Of a DNA stretch of 64,000 nt, positions 10,001 to 25,000 are shown piece by piece. The DNA comes from Longimicrobiales bacterium (GTDB lineage: Bacteria; Gemmatimonadota; Gemmatimonadetes; Longimicrobiales; Gaopeijiaceae): NCBI GenBank assembly GCA_965197725.1, contig CBDANQ010000060.1, positions 1 through 64,000 of the forward strand. The letters run 5' to 3'. Made by a program: the position numbers. Numbering within the stretch: position 1 is the first letter of the stretch; each line of letters opens with the position of its first letter.

Positions 10001-13000
10001 GGCGAAGACGACCATCGGGGGGCGATCGTAACGATCCATCCGGGGGCTGGTGGGCTCGAGTCCCAGGACTGGGCCCAGATGCTGATGCGCATGTACACGC
10101 GATGGGCCGAGCGGGGTGGCTTCACGGTCAATGTTCTCGACCTCCAGCCGGCGGAGGAGGCGGGAATCAAGAACGCGACGCTCGAGATCAATGGAGAGCG
10201 TGCGTACGGATTCCTCAAGGCTGAAGGCGGCGTTCACCGCCTCGTGCGTATCTCGCCCTGCGACGCGCAGGCTCGCCGGCACACCTCGTTCGCGAGCGTC
10301 TTCATCTATCCCCAGGTGGACGACAGCATCGACATCGAGATCGACGACGGCGACCTCCGTGTCGACACGTACCGTGCGTCCGGCGCCGGAGGACAGCACG
10401 TGAACAAGACCGATTCCGCGGTCCGTCTCACGCACGCACCGACCGGGATCGTGGTCCAGTGCCAGCAGGAGCGCTCGCAGCACAAGAACCGCGCGACCGC
10501 GATGAAGATGCTGCGGGCCCGCCTGTACCAGCACGCGCTGGAAGAGAAAGAGAAGGAGCTAGCGGCGCTCGAGGCGAAGAAGACCGATATCGGTTTCGGG
10601 AACCAGATTCGGTCTTACGTTTTCCAACCGTACACGATGGTCAATGACCACAGGACCGAGCTCAAGATCACGGACGTCCAGTCCGTGATGGACGGCGCGA
10701 TCAATCCGTTCATCGAAGCCTATCTGAAAATGTTGGGCGCGGTGTCTTCGTCGTAGCCTCGCATACACCGGTAGACTCGCACCGACCTATGGAAGATCTG
10801 AGCCAGGTGCTCCGCATACGGCGTGAAAAGCTCGCAGCCCTCGGCGAGCGGGGTATCGAGCCCTTCGCGTACAACTACGAACCGACACATCGCACGGTTG
10901 CGGTTGCCGCGTCCTTCGAGGTGGCGGAAACGGCGGGCGGGCTCAGCGAAAACGGCGACGGGGAGTCGGCCCAGCTCGGCGGTCGTATCGTGAGCTGGCG
11001 GGGCCACGGTAAGAGCGCGTTCGCGCACCTCGAGGACGGAGATGGTCGCATCCAGATCTACTTCAAGAAGGACGTGCTCGGGGACGGACCTTTCGAAGAC
11101 CTGGACCTGATCGACCTCGGGGATTGGATCGGGGTGGAGGGGCGGGTCTTCCGCACGCGCACCGGCGAGATCACGATCCGGGCGGAGTCGTATACGCTGC
11201 TCACCAAGGCGTTGCGGCCGCTTCCCTTCGGTAAGGTCGAGACCGACCCGGAGACCGGTGAACGCACCGTGCACTCCGGCTTCTCGAACCAGGAGACCCG
11301 CTACCGACAACGCTGCGCTGACCTGGCTGTTCATCCCGAGGTCCGGGAGGTCTTTCGCACGCGCTCCCGAATCATCACGGCTCTGCGGGCGTTTCTAGAT
11401 TCGGAGGGCTTCTTGGAGGTCGAGACGCCGGTGCTCCAGCCGCTGTACGGCGGCGCCTCGGCAAAGCCGTTCGTGACGACGCACAACGCGTTGGACCAGA
11501 GGATGTATCTGCGCATCGCGGACGAGCTGTACCTCAAGCGCCTCATCGTCGGGGGCTTAGATCGGGTCTACGAGATCTCGAAGGACTTCCGCAACGAGAG
11601 GCTGAGCCGTGTGCACAACCCCGAGTTCACCATGCTCGAGTGGTACCAGGCGTTCTCCGACTACCGAGATCAGATGGATGTGGTCGAGCGCATGGTTCTG
11701 CACGTGCTGGACGACGTCATCGCTGCGCGCACGGTCTCGTACGGAGAGCACGAGATCACGTTTGGGCCTCCGTTCCGGCGCCTGAGTCTGGTCGGCGGCC
11801 TGTCGCAGGCATTGGGTCTGGACGTTCACGAGATGGGAGAGGGCGAGCTGCGAGCGAAGGCCGAAGAGTTGCAGCTCCCGGACCTCGACGGTGCCGGCCG
11901 AGGCAAGCTGATCGATAAGCTCTTCGGTGAGCTCGTCGAACCCGGCCTGATTCAGCCGACGTTCGTGATCGACTACCCGAAGGAACTGAGTCCGCTCGCG
12001 AAGCCGAACCGCGAGGATGCGCGTCTGACGGAGCGTTTCGAGCTGTACATCGCCGGCGCGGAGATCTTCAACGCGTTCTCGGAGCTCAACGACCCGATCG
12101 ACCAGCGGCAGCGTTTCGAAGCTCAGGCGACACTGCGCGCCGCTGGGGACGATGAGGCTCAGCAGGTCGACCAGGACTACATCCGCGCGCTCGAGTACGG
12201 CATGCCGCCCACGGGTGGGGTCGGCTTGGGCGTAGACCGCCTGGTGATGATGCTGACGAACCAGTCCTCGATCCGGGACGTCATCCTGTTTCCCATCCTC
12301 AAGGACGAAGAGTGAGCGGGTCGGGGGCGCCGCCCGGCGATGCCCGACTGCACTGGTTCATAGCCCGCCACTACCTCGGCGCTGGCCGAGGACGCGGCCT
12401 GCTTTCGCTCATCACGTGGATCGCGCTCGGTGGTGTGACCGTCGGTGTGACGGCGCTCGTCATCGTGATCGCGGTGATGACCGGCATGCAGGAGGACCTC
12501 CAGTCGAAGATCCTGGAGTCGACGGCGCACGTAGTCGTGATGGAGCAAGGCACGAGCTTGCGGCTGCACGACTACCCGACCGTGCTCGAGAAGGTGCGCG
12601 CCACGGAGCATGTAACGGGCGCCGCACCGTTCGTGCTTTCGCAGGTGTCGATCGTGCGCAGCGGTACGGACGCACGCTACCCACAGTCGGCCGATCTATA
12701 CGGCATCGCGTTCGATACGATTGGCGCTCCGCCCACGGAGATGGCGAGGCAGATCATCGACGGTGTGCTTAACCTAGAGCCCCCGGAGTCAGGGGTGCGG
12801 CCGCTGCTCATGGGCTCGGGCCTCGCCGGTCGCATGCAACTCTTCGTTGGAGACACGGTCGTGGTTGCCGCCTTCGAGAACCTCAAACAGGATATCTTCG
12901 GCGGCCTGACTCCGACGCTGCGGCAGTTCGAGGTCACGGGCACGTTCACGACCGGCATGTACGACTACGACATGAAGAACGTGTACACGTCACTCGAGGT

Positions 13001-22000: not shown

Positions 22001-25000
22001 AGGGGATTCGGATCGGCCCGTACGCCGTGATCGAGCCCGGTGCGGTCATCGGTGATCGCACCCGGATCGGTGCCCACTGTGTGGTCGGCCGCGAGGCCGA
22101 GATCGGCCGCGACTGTCTCTTCCATCCGCACGTCGTCGTGTACCACGATTGCTCGGTGGGTGATCGAGTGATTCTCCACTCGGGAGTACGCGTGGGGTCG
22201 GACGGCTTCGGGTTCACGTTCGTCGACGGGGCGCACCGCAAGATGCCGCAGGTCGGGCGATGTATCGTCAAAGACGACGTCGAGGTCGGCGCCAACAGTA
22301 CGCTGGACCGAGGATCCCTGGGGGACACGGTGATTGGGCAGGGCTCGAAACTCGACAACCTCGTGCACATGGCGCACAACGTCCGGGTCGGAGCCCTCTC
22401 GCTGTTCGCCGCACTGGTCGGCGTTGCGGGGTCGGTGCGCATCGGACAGGGTGTGTGGATGGGTGGCCAAGTCGGGGTGAGCAACCACCTTGAAATCGGG
22501 GATGGAGCCCGCCTCGCAATCGCGACGAAGCTCATGCGAGACGTGCCCGCGGGAGAGACCATGTCGGGCCACCCAGCCCGCCCACACCGCGAGCAGATGA
22601 AGAAACAGGCCCAACTCGGCCGCATGCCGAAGCTCGTCAAACGCGTCGAGCGGTTGGAGTCTGTGGTTTCCGAACTCTCGGACGGATGAGCGCTCCCAGC
22701 CAGCGCACGATCGCGAAGGAGATCACCCTGGAAGGTTGTGGCGTGCACTCGGGTGAGGCCGCGACCTTGACGTTCCGTGCCGCCGAGCCTGGCACGGGCA
22801 TCCGTTTCCGCCGTGTCGACCTGGACGGTTCGCCGGAAGTACCGGCGCGCCTGGACCACGTGCTCGACACCGAGCTCGGTACGTCGCTCGCCTCCGGAGA
22901 GACCAAGGTGCTCACCGTGGAGCACGTCATGGCCGCGCTTGGCGCCCTCGAGATCGACAACGTGACACTCGATCTCGCAGGGCCTGAGATTCCCATCCGA
23001 GACGGATCGTTCCAGGACTACTTCCGCGCGCTGAGCGATGCCGGACCGGTGGAGCAGGGCGCCGAGGCTTGCGTCATCAGCATCGGCGAGCCTTTGATCA
23101 CCGACGGTGACCCGGGTCAATCATATGTGGCCACCAAGGGATCAGGCCTCCGAGTCTCAGCCACCATCGACTTCGAGCACGACGCGATCGGGAGGCGCTT
23201 CGGCTCTTTTTCCGCGGCGGCCGGAGCGTTCGCGATCGAACTGGCGCCGGCACGAACCTTCGGCTTCAAGGCGGACGCTGAAGAGCTGCGCGCGCGCGGA
23301 CTCGCGCTCGGCGCGTCGCTCGAGAATACCGTGGTGCTGGACGACGACGGAGTCATGAACGACGGCCTGCGCTTCGAGGATGAGTTCCTGCGCCACAAGG
23401 TTGGGGATATCGTCGGCGATCTCGCGCTCATCGGGGCGCGCATCAACGCTCACGTGGTGGCGGAGCGGCCAAGCCACAGCGGCAACGTAGCCCTCGCCCA
23501 CGCGATCGCCAGGCAGGGTCGGCATTCTGGCCGGCAGCCGGTCGTCGATATCACCAAGATCATGGAGTACCTGCCGCATCGGTACCCGATGCTGCTCGTG
23601 GACCGCATTACGGAGTACGAGGAGGGCAAACGGATCGTGGGCATCAAGAACGTCACGATCAACGAGCCGTTCTTCCAAGGCCACTATCCGGGACATCCGG
23701 TGATGCCGGGCGTGCTCGTCATCGAAGCGATGGCGCAGGTGGGAGGACTCCTGCTGATCGACCAGGTGGAGAACCCCGAGGAAAAAGTTGTGTACTTCAT
23801 GTCGCTCAACAACGTGAAGTGGCGGAGGCCGGTCACGCCCGGCGACACCATCGTCTTCGAGTTGGAGCTGACGCAGTACCGAAGGCATGTCTGCAAGATG
23901 CGGGGGTGCGCGTACGTTGATGGCAAGCTGGCTGCCGAGGCGGACCTCATGGCGAGGATCGTCGACAAGTGAGCGACGTCACCGTCGGAAGCCGGGGGGA
24001 GACCGAGGTCCATGCGACGGCGCTCGTGGATCCCGCGGCAGAGCTCGGCGAGGGTGTCACCATCGGCCCCTGGGCTCTGATCGGTCCGCGCGTGCGGATC
24101 GGGGACGGGACGGAGGTCGGTCCGCGCGTGCTCATCGAGCGCCATACGACCCTGGGCGAGGACTGCCGGATCGCGAACGGAGCGGTACTCGGGACCGACC
24201 CACAGGATCTGAAGTTCCAGGGTGAGGAAACGACCCTGGAGGTAGGGGCCCGAACCGTTGTCCGCGAGTTTGCGACGCTCAACCGGGGGACCTCTGCTGC
24301 TGGCAGAACGATCATCGGCAGCGATTGCCTGCTCATGGCCTACACTCACGTCGCCCACGACTGCGAGCTCGGAAATCACGTGATCTTGTCGAACGCGGTG
24401 AACATGGGGGGGCACGTGGTCATCGAGGACTGGGTGACGGTCGGCGGTCTCACTCCGATCCATCAGTTCGTGCGCATTGGAGCACATGCGTTCGTGGGCG
24501 GAGGCTCCCGCATTCCACAGGACGTACCCCCTTACTGCCGCGCGGCCGGGAATCCGCCCAAGCTCTACGGGCTGAACACCGTCGGTCTGGAGCGGCGCGG
24601 ATTCTCCGAGGACGTGCGTAAGGCGCTCAAGCAGGCGTACCGCATTCTGTTCGGCTCCAACCTCAACCTGGCACGGGCGCTCGAACGAGCGGACGAGGAT
24701 GTGCCTGCGATTCCCGAGGTGCGGCATCTGCTCGAGTTCATCCGTGCAGGCGAGCGCGGGATCACCGTTTAGGGGGGCGAAATCACATGTCACTCATTCG
24801 CGTGCGCCGCAGACGGAAAAAGAACTGGCTCGACGCCCGGAAGGGAATGCCGGCTCAGCGCCTCATGGGGCTGCTGGTGATTACCATCGCCCTCATCTGG
24901 TTTCTCAGCTCGCGATTCTAGTGTGTGGGCTGGGGGACTCGCCGACCGTTCTCCTGCTCGCGGGCGAGGCGTCGGGGGACCAGCATGGAGCTGGCGTCGC

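Follow-up and report, generated by a model that had tools for sequence, protein, structure and literature searches.

A predicted ECF-type promoter inside mcsB may join clpC to bamA-skp-lpx within an inherited operon of Gemmatimonadota

Work on arginine phosphorylation has dealt almost entirely with the CtsR-linked heat-shock system found in Gram-positive bacteria, and a passage of a 2024 paper states that the activity of Gram-negative homologues of the arginine kinase has never been identified (PMC11046695). The locus described here raises the question of why mcsA, mcsB and clpC lie among outer-membrane genes, and whether this position ties phospho-arginine proteolysis to envelope biogenesis rather than to a CtsR heat-shock regulon, as an earlier note on this DNA proposed. 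The window, i.e., the whole stretch of DNA that we analyzed, comprises 64,000 nt from a Longimicrobiales bacterium (Gemmatimonadota). The same note placed the three genes co-oriented between lolC/E-lolD and bamA-skp-lpx; the NCBIfam and Pfam profiles and the gene order agree with this. The upstream edge of the block lies earlier than first drawn and takes in a GGDEF gene, a zinc-finger gene, prfB and lysS. The features are the following:

7695..7724, + strand, sigma70-type promoter-like site (TTGACA-18 nt-TAACCT) ahead of the GGDEF gene
7758-8756, + strand, GGDEF-domain gene, conserved member of the upstream block in the class
8787-9608, + strand, zinc-ribbon (zinc-finger) gene, conserved member of the upstream block in the class
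9646-10756, + strand, prfB with its usual frameshift site, housekeeping gene of the same run
10789-12315, + strand, lysS, housekeeping gene; its stop and the lolC start share 4 nt
12312-13598, + strand, lolC/E, lipoprotein exporter (best match TIGR02212, 306 bits, below cut-off)
13591-14316, + strand, lolD, lipoprotein exporter (best match TIGR02211, 274 bits, below cut-off), overlapping lolC by 8 nt
14392-14895, + strand, mcsA (NF053706, E 2e-38, 132 bits, below the cut-off of 210; PF02151)
14900-16111, + strand, mcsB, protein-arginine kinase (PF00217, 202 bits, above cut-off; NF002194, 374.5 against a cut-off of 385)
15099-15248, + strand, exact in-frame 75-nt tandem duplication (25 residues) in mcsB
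15888..15915, + strand, predicted ECF-sigma-type promoter motif inside mcsB (-35 TGAAAC at 15888-15893, 16 nt, -10 TGTATA at 15910-15915)
16108-18591, + strand, clpC (PF02861, PF02151), its start overlapping the mcsB stop
18591 (or 18606)-21029, + strand, bamA (TIGR03303, 381 bits, over cut-off); the first start overlaps the clpC stop
21074-21609, + strand, skp (PF03938)
21622-22689, + strand, lpxD (NCBIfam/Pfam)
22686-23972, + strand, fused lpxC-fabZ (NCBIfam/Pfam)
23969-24772, + strand, lpxA (NCBIfam/Pfam)
to 26054, + strand, lpxB (NCBIfam/Pfam)
to 27768, + strand, DUF374 gene and then lpxK, after lpxB (NCBIfam/Pfam)

The order prfB-lysS-lolC-lolD-mcsA-mcsB-clpC-bamA-skp-lpxD-lpxC/fabZ-lpxA-lpxB thus runs on the + strand throughout, with identities drawn from NCBIfam and Pfam. 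Stop and start codons overlap at most junctions; mcsA and mcsB are 4 nt apart and mcsB overlaps clpC by 4 nt. The block very likely forms one operon. Its likely start, predicted from sequence, is the site at 7695..7724: the pattern TTGAC-N-TAnnnT recurs at this position in 13/19 named loci that have the GGDEF gene, and it is the enriched upstream pattern of this genome (103 against 24 in shuffles).

The encoded proteins carry the marks of a phospho-arginine system. McsA has two four-cysteine zinc sites, all eight cysteines being conserved, and a C-terminal UVR domain (PF02151). The alignment of McsB with a solved McsB extends to residue 379 (E 9e-81), over the phosphagen-kinase domain and the C-terminal dimerisation domain. 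Its catalytic residues C196, N148-H152 (NEEDH) and E241 correspond to Cys167, the NEEDH motif and Glu212 of the reference, and the Cys, EEDH and Glu are invariant in 123/123 sequences. The 75-bp duplication reported earlier in mcsB was recovered; it lies N-terminal of the catalytic motifs, occurs in one of 147 McsB sequences, is skipped in the contigs of relatives and is private to the strain or its library. ClpC contains a UVR middle domain (PF02151) and LGF at 685-687, which we take to be the ClpP-docking loop. Its double Clp_N domain retains both phospho-arginine sites, E31 and E107 (E32 and E106 in the reference, according to part of PMC12583610), which are invariant in 101/101 sequences. 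ClpP was found in 5/5 genomes.

A YwlE-like arginine phosphatase had also been claimed, and one is encoded at C53:60393-60887. The mark of this phosphatase is a Thr in the CxGNTCRS loop of the LMW-PTP fold, and the loop here reads CTGNTCRS. A homologue is present in 81/81 genomes, with the Thr form of the loop in 22 of the 29 loci read and the Ile form in seven. The gene adjoins a Sua5/TsaC gene, much as ywlC and ywlE are paired in Bacillus. The class III locus ctsR-mcsA-mcsB-clpC of B. subtilis further shares with ours the order and coupling of mcsA-mcsB-clpC, the NEEDH, Cys and Glu of McsB, the zinc sites of McsA, both ClpC sites and a single ClpP. The two differ in that ctsR and the CtsR box are missing here, lolD stands directly ahead of mcsA, an ECF promoter is predicted inside mcsB, and bamA-skp-lpx follow clpC where Bacillus has radA-disA. 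The reported absence of ctsR was borne out: PF05848 had no match in this genome (0/1; 88.9% complete) or in 81 genomes of the phylum (0/81), with positive controls in B. subtilis and L. lactis, and the 75-nt gap between lolD and mcsA leaves no room for the gene. Searching the genome for the CtsR box, a heptad repeat, returned only two sites, each with two mismatches and neither on this contig.

The motif inside mcsB, TGAAAC-N16-TGTA, lies ~190 nt upstream of the clpC start in the window; across 34 loci, this distance ranges from 153 to 263 nt. It is kept at synonymous positions: at the site, Val is encoded by GTA in 47/49 cases against 9.6% (about 10%) gene-wide, Lys by AAA in 31/35 against 20%, and Ser by AGT 31 times, and the spacer is free. 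The strict form was found in 32/42 named loci and 10/14 class loci, and TGAAAC-N16-TGTA in 9/10 loci from a second class within the phylum, counts that come from kin genomes and not from independent samples. In other phyla, 0/81 McsB genes carry it, and among the phyla sampled the motif is confined to this one. B. subtilis ECF promoters present tgaAAC and CGTA, according to a section of PMC5758882. We consider it very probable that the motif is a promoter, and probable that it is an ECF promoter of the envelope-stress kind.

Related sites were found at other genes. AAC-N17-GTA occurs upstream of degP in 13/30 genomes (shuffles: mean 0.6, maximum 4; other spacers: 0-2); eight of these 13 come from one family, another family (f3) has 0/7, and the degP of our genome lacks the motif. 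AAC-N18-GTA, mostly TGAAAC-N17-CGTA and thus with a spacer one base longer than at mcsB, precedes the anti-sigma gene of a SigW-like ECF in 28/30 genomes (0.33 in shuffles), six of the 28 matches falling within the sigma gene of one genus. A second ECF is kept as a pair with its anti-sigma gene in four genomes, and AAC-N17/18-GTA stands upstream of that anti-sigma gene in 4/4 of them. Both anti-sigmas present a zinc motif and a membrane segment (13/14 and 3/3 found), which makes two candidate ECF systems with a membrane-anchored anti-sigma and their own promoter of this form. The SigW-like sigma was not found in our genome at its 88.9% completeness, and a genome-wide scan there gave 15 sites against 14 in shuffles, i.e., no excess, with a slight spacer preference. 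At this spacer the motif was found at dnaK in 0/19, ywlE in 0/29, clpB in 0/5, grpE in 2/30 and ppiD in 2/30 cases (absent at ppiD in 28/30). A sigma54-type motif precedes dnaK in 16/19 cases, HrcA is present in 5/5 genomes and one CIRCE-like site lies at groES; the cytoplasmic chaperones therefore appear to run on signals other than the mcsB motif. The motif hidden inside mcsB is new to this analysis.

On balance, we favor the view that an old, inherited housekeeping operon has an internal stress-type (ECF) promoter, which would define a clpC-bamA-skp-lpx sub-operon excluding mcsA and mcsB. The sigma70-type promoter at 7695 would drive prfB, lysS, lolC, lolD, mcsA, mcsB and the genes beyond. 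The kinase pair McsA and McsB would then be produced at a constant level from genes coupled to lolD, with the YwlE-like phosphatase acting against it and no CtsR switch. In Gemmatimonadota, the promoter in the 3' end of mcsB would add a shorter clpC-bamA-skp-lpxD-lpxC/fabZ-lpxA transcript, in the same regulon as periplasmic degP, so that envelope stress would raise ClpC, the cytoplasmic unfoldase, along with BAM, Skp and the lipid A enzymes. ClpC, acting with ClpP, may remove unfolded or unexported envelope precursors, some of them McsB-marked, and possibly released anti-sigma fragments; that ClpC acts on envelope precursors is a tentative proposal. The gene order, the overlaps, the conserved residues and the motif with its recurrences are observed directly; we infer transcription from either promoter, the sigma identity and the inducing stress, and the substrates are guesses.

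Such a sub-operon would resemble the sigmaE regulons. Parts of three papers report sigmaE control of bamA, skp and lpxD in both E. coli and Fusobacterium, with degP added in E. coli and sub-operon promoters also used in Fusobacterium (PMC4651636, PMC1312014, PMC9546586). The system here would share with E. coli and Fusobacterium nucleatum the same predicted targets under one ECF-type promoter inside a longer operon, and membrane-anchored anti-sigma genes with their own promoter. In contrast, the -10 here, (T/C)GTA, matches that of B. subtilis SigW rather than GTCWAA, and clpC heads the sub-operon, an arrangement not described for E. coli or F. nucleatum in those parts. The proposed tie between phospho-arginine proteolysis and envelope biogenesis stands only in part. 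The lack of CtsR control holds, and the ECF-type motif would tie clpC to bamA-skp-lpx. However, adjacency alone shows no functional tie, the block also contains prfB and lysS, and the predicted promoter, being within mcsB, would leave mcsA and mcsB outside its transcript. Our best reading is thus that the envelope link concerns the unfoldase ClpC more than the kinase McsB.

The adjacency itself is largely inheritance, as the earlier note had cautioned. McsB is present in 80/81 sampled genomes of the phylum, and bamA lies 3' of mcsB on the same strand, at 2.9-4.2 kb, in 74 of these 80; in the other six, the two genes are on separate contigs, with breaks at contig ends. The layout is not chance, and these samples agree in direction with the larger counts of the earlier note. 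In relatives, lolD and mcsA are at most 30 nt apart in 41/45 loci (median -1, a value biased short by taking the nearest in-frame start). The McsB, ClpC and LysS trees agree (16/20 and 17/21 supported splits in common; 43 loci). Two other McsB-bearing phyla share lysS-lolCD-mcsAB-clpC but have bamA after clpC in 0/20 and 0/20 loci, and the lolCD-mcsAB-clpC junction predates the bamA junction. One locus keeps lolD-clpC-bamA without mcsAB. In a sister phylum, clpC-bamA is kept in 20/20 loci without the motif, so this adjacency does not need it.

A rival reading is that synteny is all there is: mcsA-mcsB-clpC would serve general cytoplasmic quality control in an ancient lysS...clpC scaffold, which lolCD and later bamA-skp-lpx joined by rearrangement, and the internal promoter, if real, would supply or boost the downstream half with clpC as a passenger. 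Of 60 metagenome loci without mcsB, 15 have lysS upstream of clpC (one with lsr2 in between) and 15 have radA downstream. The genes after clpC vary by lineage (bamA, mlaEFD-radA or unrelated genes), loci of the Omnitrophota and Verrucomicrobiae types have ilvE between lolD and mcsA, and planctomycete mcsAB lie apart from lol, clpC and bamA. Chlamydia trachomatis, likewise a diderm that has no CtsR context, with McsA, McsB and a ClpC needing arginine-phosphorylated casein in vitro, has mcsAB and clpC apart, with no envelope-gene linkage described in the relevant part of PMC10128030. However, a promoter serving only bamA could lie in the last part of clpC, and no conserved site was found there: between lysS and bamA, the only conserved AAC-N17-GTA site is the one in mcsB. 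That site lies upstream of clpC, is retained under coding constraint in two or more classes and has the same form as the sites found ahead of degP. We regard synteny alone as unlikely, though deserving of weight.

Still less probable is that envelope biogenesis is the dedicated task of McsB tagging, which would, for instance, set the level of the cytoplasmic LpxC-FabZ fusion or remove anti-sigma fragments in place of a LapB-FtsH route. In favor of this, LapB exceeded the cut-off in 0/5 genomes (E. coli control positive), coupling of mcsA to lolD recurs in three phylum samples, and two separate lineages have envelope genes downstream of clpC (bamA in one, mlaEFD in the other). In M. tuberculosis, the anti-sigma RseA is a substrate of ClpC1P2 during surface stress, which places a ClpC protease within the ECF (SigE) response (from part of PMC11173970); this is a monoderm-type lineage without the block, and its clp genes are induced through ClgR. 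The McsB of the class is predicted to be a protein-arginine kinase with a remodelled allosteric phospho-arginine pocket: F314 replaces S285 and G366 replaces R337, D367 and R370 match D338 and R341, and the octamer residue R194 is K223 (roles from part of PMC8370763). Phe stands at position 285 in 37/42 named and 12/14 class loci, and Arg at 337 in only 2/42 named and 2/13 class loci against 79/81 in other phyla. However, R337 is kept in 18/18 sequences of the sister phylum although the bamA link is present, so the pocket change does not track that link; McsB is equally common where bamA is located elsewhere (31/31, 61/61), and mcsA and mcsB would fall outside the predicted transcript.

It is similarly improbable that the motif is an operator, RNA element or codon effect, or that it serves a general heat-shock ECF replacing CtsR: the -10 region in the window is a perfect 12-nt palindrome, and no regulon stands out in our genome, which has single AAC-N17-GTA sites at grpE and an NfuA-like gene, but the 10-nt palindrome is perfect in only 15/55 loci, its completing Tyr codon is at background (TAT 18/49 against 31.5% gene-wide), it is missing from the other class, a pair of boxes kept at constant spacing around a free spacer is promoter-like, and dnaK, grpE and clpB mostly lack the site.

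The inherited operon with an internal promoter thus remains our preferred reading, and it bears on arginine phosphorylation in diderms. McsA, McsB, YwlE, ClpC and ClpP are near-universal in the diderm phyla sampled, without CtsR. A bolder and doubtful extension is that, in Gemmatimonadota, phospho-arginine/ClpCP has become the cytoplasmic branch of the response to outer-membrane stress: through a promoter in the mcsB frame, an ECF would raise ClpC along with BAM, Skp and the lipid A enzymes, and constitutive McsB, free of feed-forward activation or caging, might mark jammed envelope precursors, the anti-sigma fragment or LpxC-FabZ for degradation in cells without CtsR and LapB. The altered allosteric pocket offers a natural variant for how McsB is restrained without the phospho-arginine switch. 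With the predicted internal promoter, an otherwise vague synteny yields a precise prediction: a start near 15921 and a clpC-bamA-skp-lpx transcript that would respond to envelope stress apart from mcsAB.

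The window carries a one-strand run of GGDEF, zinc-ribbon, prfB, lysS, lolC/E, lolD, mcsA, mcsB, clpC, bamA and skp genes, which continues with lpxD, a fused lpxC-fabZ, lpxA, lpxB, a DUF374 gene and lpxK; among named records, the closest relatives belong to Gemmatimonadota. Reading frames overlap at lysS/lolC (4 nt), lolC/lolD (8 nt), mcsB/clpC, lpxD/lpxC and lpxC/lpxA (4 nt each), and clpC and bamA overlap by 1 nt, or lie 14 nt apart if the second bamA start is used. The spacing is 4 nt from mcsA to mcsB and 75 nt from lolD to mcsA; the lolD-mcsA interval does not exceed 30 nt in 41 of 45 loci. 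Metatranscriptome contigs from relatives (two runs; four of the 24 listed runs covered) bridge mcsB/clpC, clpC/bamA, skp/lpxD, lpxD/lpxC and lpxA/lpxB, and these were not counted as evidence because strand and start are unseen and a DNA origin is possible. A consensus scan of positions 7500-27400 returned no promoters and three terminator-like sites, below chance. We also observed a 44-codon open reading frame between lpxA and lpxB (24787-24921) that begins basic and ends hydrophobic, matched by no fetched locus; the same interval often holds a gap of about 1 kb in relatives. A bshC gene (bacillithiol synthesis; 28192-29826; above cut-off) directly follows the lipid A genes and rlmH, and positions 2455-4848 hold a PorV/PorQ-family gene followed by an IS3-family transposase encoded as a single 402-residue frame.

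The earlier note described the layout as the rule, with ctsR missing and a YwlE-like arginine phosphatase encoded elsewhere, and all three statements held in a sample of the phylum. CtsR was found in neither this genome (0/1; 88.9% complete) nor any of 81 genomes of the phylum Gemmatimonadota, the control being positive. The phosphatase has a CTGNTCRS loop; its gene, on another contig, adjoins one for Sua5/TsaC, and homologues occur in 81/81 genomes. McsB was present in 80 and BamA in all 81 of the genomes sampled, and bamA lies on the same strand 2.9-4.2 kb downstream of mcsB in 74 of the 80 genomes with McsB; the remaining six have the two genes on separate contigs. In the sole genome without McsB, clpC is truncated by the contig start and stands immediately before bamA. 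The best 80 of 582 named loci include 46 from Gemmatimonadota: bamA comes after clpC in 33 of these, and the remaining 13 stop in clpC. All genomes tested (5/5) gave HrcA and one ClpP. About 18 tRNA genes stand in a row on one contig of this genome (C47). Among unpublished genomes, G055 is counted in the 81-genome tallies, in one contig-break case and in the phosphatase counts, and G135 in one BamA tally only; G225, G220 and G218 are counted in the class tallies (2 of 13 degP matches, L465 and L476, and 1 of 28 anti-sigma matches, L530) and give single rows of the ppiD, grpE and dnaK controls. None of the claims rests on unpublished genomes alone.

Taken by itself, this adjacency reflects inheritance, as the earlier note had cautioned, because its junctions differ in age and the McsB, ClpC and LysS trees agree. 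In the sister phylum (G082), clpC precedes bamA in 20/20 fetched regions (20 of 31 genomes), with the whole run in 18, and the McsB proteins intermix with named Eisenbacteria records in the tree. The phylum of G081 (record title Ignavibacteria) has McsB in 31/31 genomes and lolC-lolD-mcsA-mcsB-clpC in 20/20 fetched regions, with bamA after clpC in 0/20. The phylum of G084 (record title Verrucomicrobiae) has McsB in 61/61 genomes, often with ilvE before mcsA and with a lolD-like gene ahead of ilvE in 5/20 regions; bamA follows clpC in 0/20. Of the two junctions, lolCD-mcsA is deeper among diderms and clpC-bamA has the narrower spread. Omnitrophota-type loci (L083, L103, L110, L214-L221) read lysS-lolCD-ilvE-mcsAB-clpC-mlaEFD-radA-PIN/TRAM and constitute a second, separate instance of envelope genes directly behind clpC; neither radA nor PIN/TRAM gave a tblastn match at 1e-10 in the present genome (88.9% complete). 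In planctomycete-type loci, mcsAB stands alone.

Lineages without McsB were sampled only via metagenome ClpC loci, since LolC aligned too variably to serve for scanning the collection: among the best 80 of 590, mcsB is missing from 60, of which 15 have lysS upstream and 15 have radA downstream. The persistence of lysS and radA at these loci gives lysS...clpC...radA the look of an ancient scaffold; in Bacillus the gene order is clpC-radA-disA. One of the 60, metagenome contig L234 (5423-20199), carries prfB-lysS-lolC-lolD-clpC-bamA-lpxD with no mcsAB on the contig, and its 150-nt gap before clpC contains a TATACT site; mcsAB may sit elsewhere in its genome. The McsB, ClpC and LysS trees are congruent (16/20 and 17/21 supported splits in common; 43 of 57 loci used), so that horizontal transfer of mcsB is unsupported by these FastTree trees, which hold no Bacillota rows and do not address its origin. 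Viral contigs contributed nothing to the question. One of them (L356, 160-6685) encodes mcsA-mcsB-clpC-radA, ahead of which a helix-turn-helix gene of GntR type (123 residues) occupies the ctsR position.

The 3' part of mcsB stood out in a scan for synonymous codons ending in A or T, and within its reading frame lies a two-box promoter-like motif of ECF-sigma type:

15888-15915, forward strand: mcsB motif, TGAAACT, 14 free bases, GTGTATA

At this motif the valine codon is GTA in 47/49 sequences (9.6% gene-wide) and the lysine codon is AAA in 31/35 (20% gene-wide), and the four codons of the spacer are free to vary. The strict motif was found in 32/42 named loci and 10/14 loci of the class Gemmatimonadetes, and TGAAAC-N16-TGTA in 9/10 loci of another class of the phylum; both patterns are absent from 81 McsB genes of other phyla. 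The site is the only conserved AAC-N17-GTA (the short form of the motif) between lysS and bamA, and it lies 153-263 nt upstream of clpC (34 loci). In the sister phylum, clpC-bamA is kept although the motif is missing. In other phyla, lolD and clpC have windows of AT-rich third positions, in which no conserved promoter pattern emerged. In two genomes (L121:9136-9738 and L122), clpC and bamA are separated by a gene for a 201-residue protein that belongs to no known family, and the mcsB motif is still kept. The boxes resemble those of B. subtilis ECF sigma factors, tgaAAC and CGTA (PMC5758882). A palindromic operator is not favoured. A sigma70 promoter was rejected because the housekeeping form of this genome, TTG-N19-21-TAnnnT (103 occurrences versus 24 in shuffles), ends in TAnnnT; that form occurs at 7695 before the GGDEF gene, and likewise in 13/19 relatives.

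We then looked for AAC-N17-GTA elsewhere in the class, in control and degP loci representing the best 30 of 41 or 81 genomes searched. It lies within 200 nt upstream of the best-matching degP in 13/30 class genomes (shuffles: mean 0.6, maximum 4; neighbouring spacers: 0-2). These matches are uneven, with 8 of the 13 from one family and 0/7 in another (f3), and the degP of the present genome lacks the motif. A second ECF-like motif, AAC-N17/18-C(A/G)TC, was seen upstream of degP (L450-L479) in 7/30 and 11/30, this genome included; degP lies downstream of dnaK, and here is followed by tig-clpP-clpX-lon. We rejected ppiD (2/30), grpE (2/30), dnaK (0/19) and clpB (0/5) as regulon members, and the phosphatase gene is preceded by the motif in 0/29 cases. 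A SigW-like ECF factor occurs in 38/41 class genomes, and AAC-N18-GTA, mostly TGAAAC-N17-CGTA, precedes its anti-sigma gene in 28/30 (shuffles: 0.33), six of these matches falling within the sigma gene in a single genus. Before the SigW-like sigma gene itself the signal is weak (3/30 at spacer 17, 4/30 at 18), and this sigma factor was not found in the present genome (88.9% complete). A second conserved ECF factor is present there, and AAC-N17/18-GTA precedes its anti-sigma gene in 4/4 genomes retaining the pair. A zinc motif and a hydrophobic segment are features of both anti-sigma types (13/14 and 3/3 found). The motif also lies between lipid A acyltransferase and glycosyltransferase genes in this genome and in G059.

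Within the present genome, a strict-pattern search matched the mcsB site alone, and a weight-matrix scan gave no excess, such that no regulon stands out genome-wide; pattern searches in five complete genomes returned 7 and 8 sites, several intragenic. A 1060-residue secreted TolB-like propeller protein (C61:200004-203183) has AAC-N17-GTA 62 nt upstream and is a possible regulon member.

Cytoplasmic chaperones present other signals. In 16/19 class genomes, dnaK is preceded by a sigma54-type motif, GGCRY-N4/5-TTGC (contig C15 of this genome; L568-L587), and in 9/19 by a short inverted repeat of GCCA..TGGC type. Similar signs were found at clpB (2/5) and before the second ECF gene, and together these sequences suggest a sigma54 heat-shock circuit. 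The genome itself has an RpoN box, and its groES has a CIRCE-like site.

The catalytic cysteine, EEDH motif and Glu212 of McsB are invariant in 123/123 aligned sequences, both phospho-arginine glutamates of ClpC are present in 101/101, and the zinc cysteines of McsA are conserved (residue roles as described in PMC11046695 and PMC12583610). Elsewhere, we observed that one of the ClpC phospho-arginine sites is missing its R9 in 18/20 loci of the G081 phylum (L183-L202), that R83 of ClpC is often K or N in the G082 phylum, and that planctomycete-type McsA has its last zinc cysteine replaced by D in 14/15. In B. subtilis McsB, R337, R341, S285 and D338 form an allosteric phospho-arginine pocket and the octamer is locked by phospho-R194 (PMC8370763). 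The window's McsB (14900-16111) has F at 285, G at 337 and K at 194. Position 285 is F in 37/42 named loci and 12/14 class loci; R337 is found in 2/42 named loci, 2/2 of the own family and 0/11 of other families. In a further class of the phylum, 10 loci show R nine times and K once at position 337, and sequences from other phyla have R there in 79/81; in all, 24 of 30 phylum loci were extractable for this comparison. R194 is uncommon across all diderm groups. The allosteric pocket is thus changed class-wide in sequence (S285 to F, R337 mostly lost) while the catalytic residues are intact, and this change does not track the bamA link. From these residues we infer that feed-forward activation of this kinase would be weak or absent in the class and that it would form no cage.

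The 75-nt duplication in mcsB, which the earlier note regarded as a possible assembly error, is in frame, N-terminal to the catalytic motifs and seen in 1/147 sequences. Relatives' contigs skip it, and a contig of the identical strain breaks off after 30 bases of the first copy, the behaviour expected of a 31-mer graph at a real loop. It is either a private duplication or a library artefact and has no bearing on the main argument.

We propose that a housekeeping promoter would read the whole long operon, keeping McsA/McsB at a steady level tied to LolD, and that the predicted ECF promoter within mcsB would add clpC-bamA-skp-lpx RNA on envelope stress; gene order, overlaps, residues and the motif are observed directly, and the transcription, the sigma factor and the inducing stress are inferred. 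ClpC would then be the cytoplasmic partner that removes unexported precursors, which McsB could mark; caged McsB favours unfolded proteins. These envelope substrates are a guess. LapB scored over the cut-off in 0/5 genomes. A second possible job of ClpC would be the removal of anti-sigma fragments, and M. tuberculosis ClpC1P2 removes an anti-sigma factor (PMC11173970). In E. coli, the genes under sigmaE include bamA, skp, lpxD and degP; in Fusobacterium they include bamA, skp and lpxD, and sigmaE also starts sub-operons there (PMC4651636, PMC1312014 and PMC9546586); the targets predicted here are alike, but the -10 box is different. The window's set would work like the Bacillus phospho-arginine/ClpCP system, but it is not a CtsR operon. 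In Chlamydia, the studied diderm case, mcsAB and clpC are apart (PMC10128030 and PMC11708050). The literature searched, covering few subscription journals, yielded no published description of the layout, of the predicted mcsB promoter or of McsB in Gemmatimonadota. With the predicted promoter, the link to the envelope becomes open to a direct test, beyond plain synteny.
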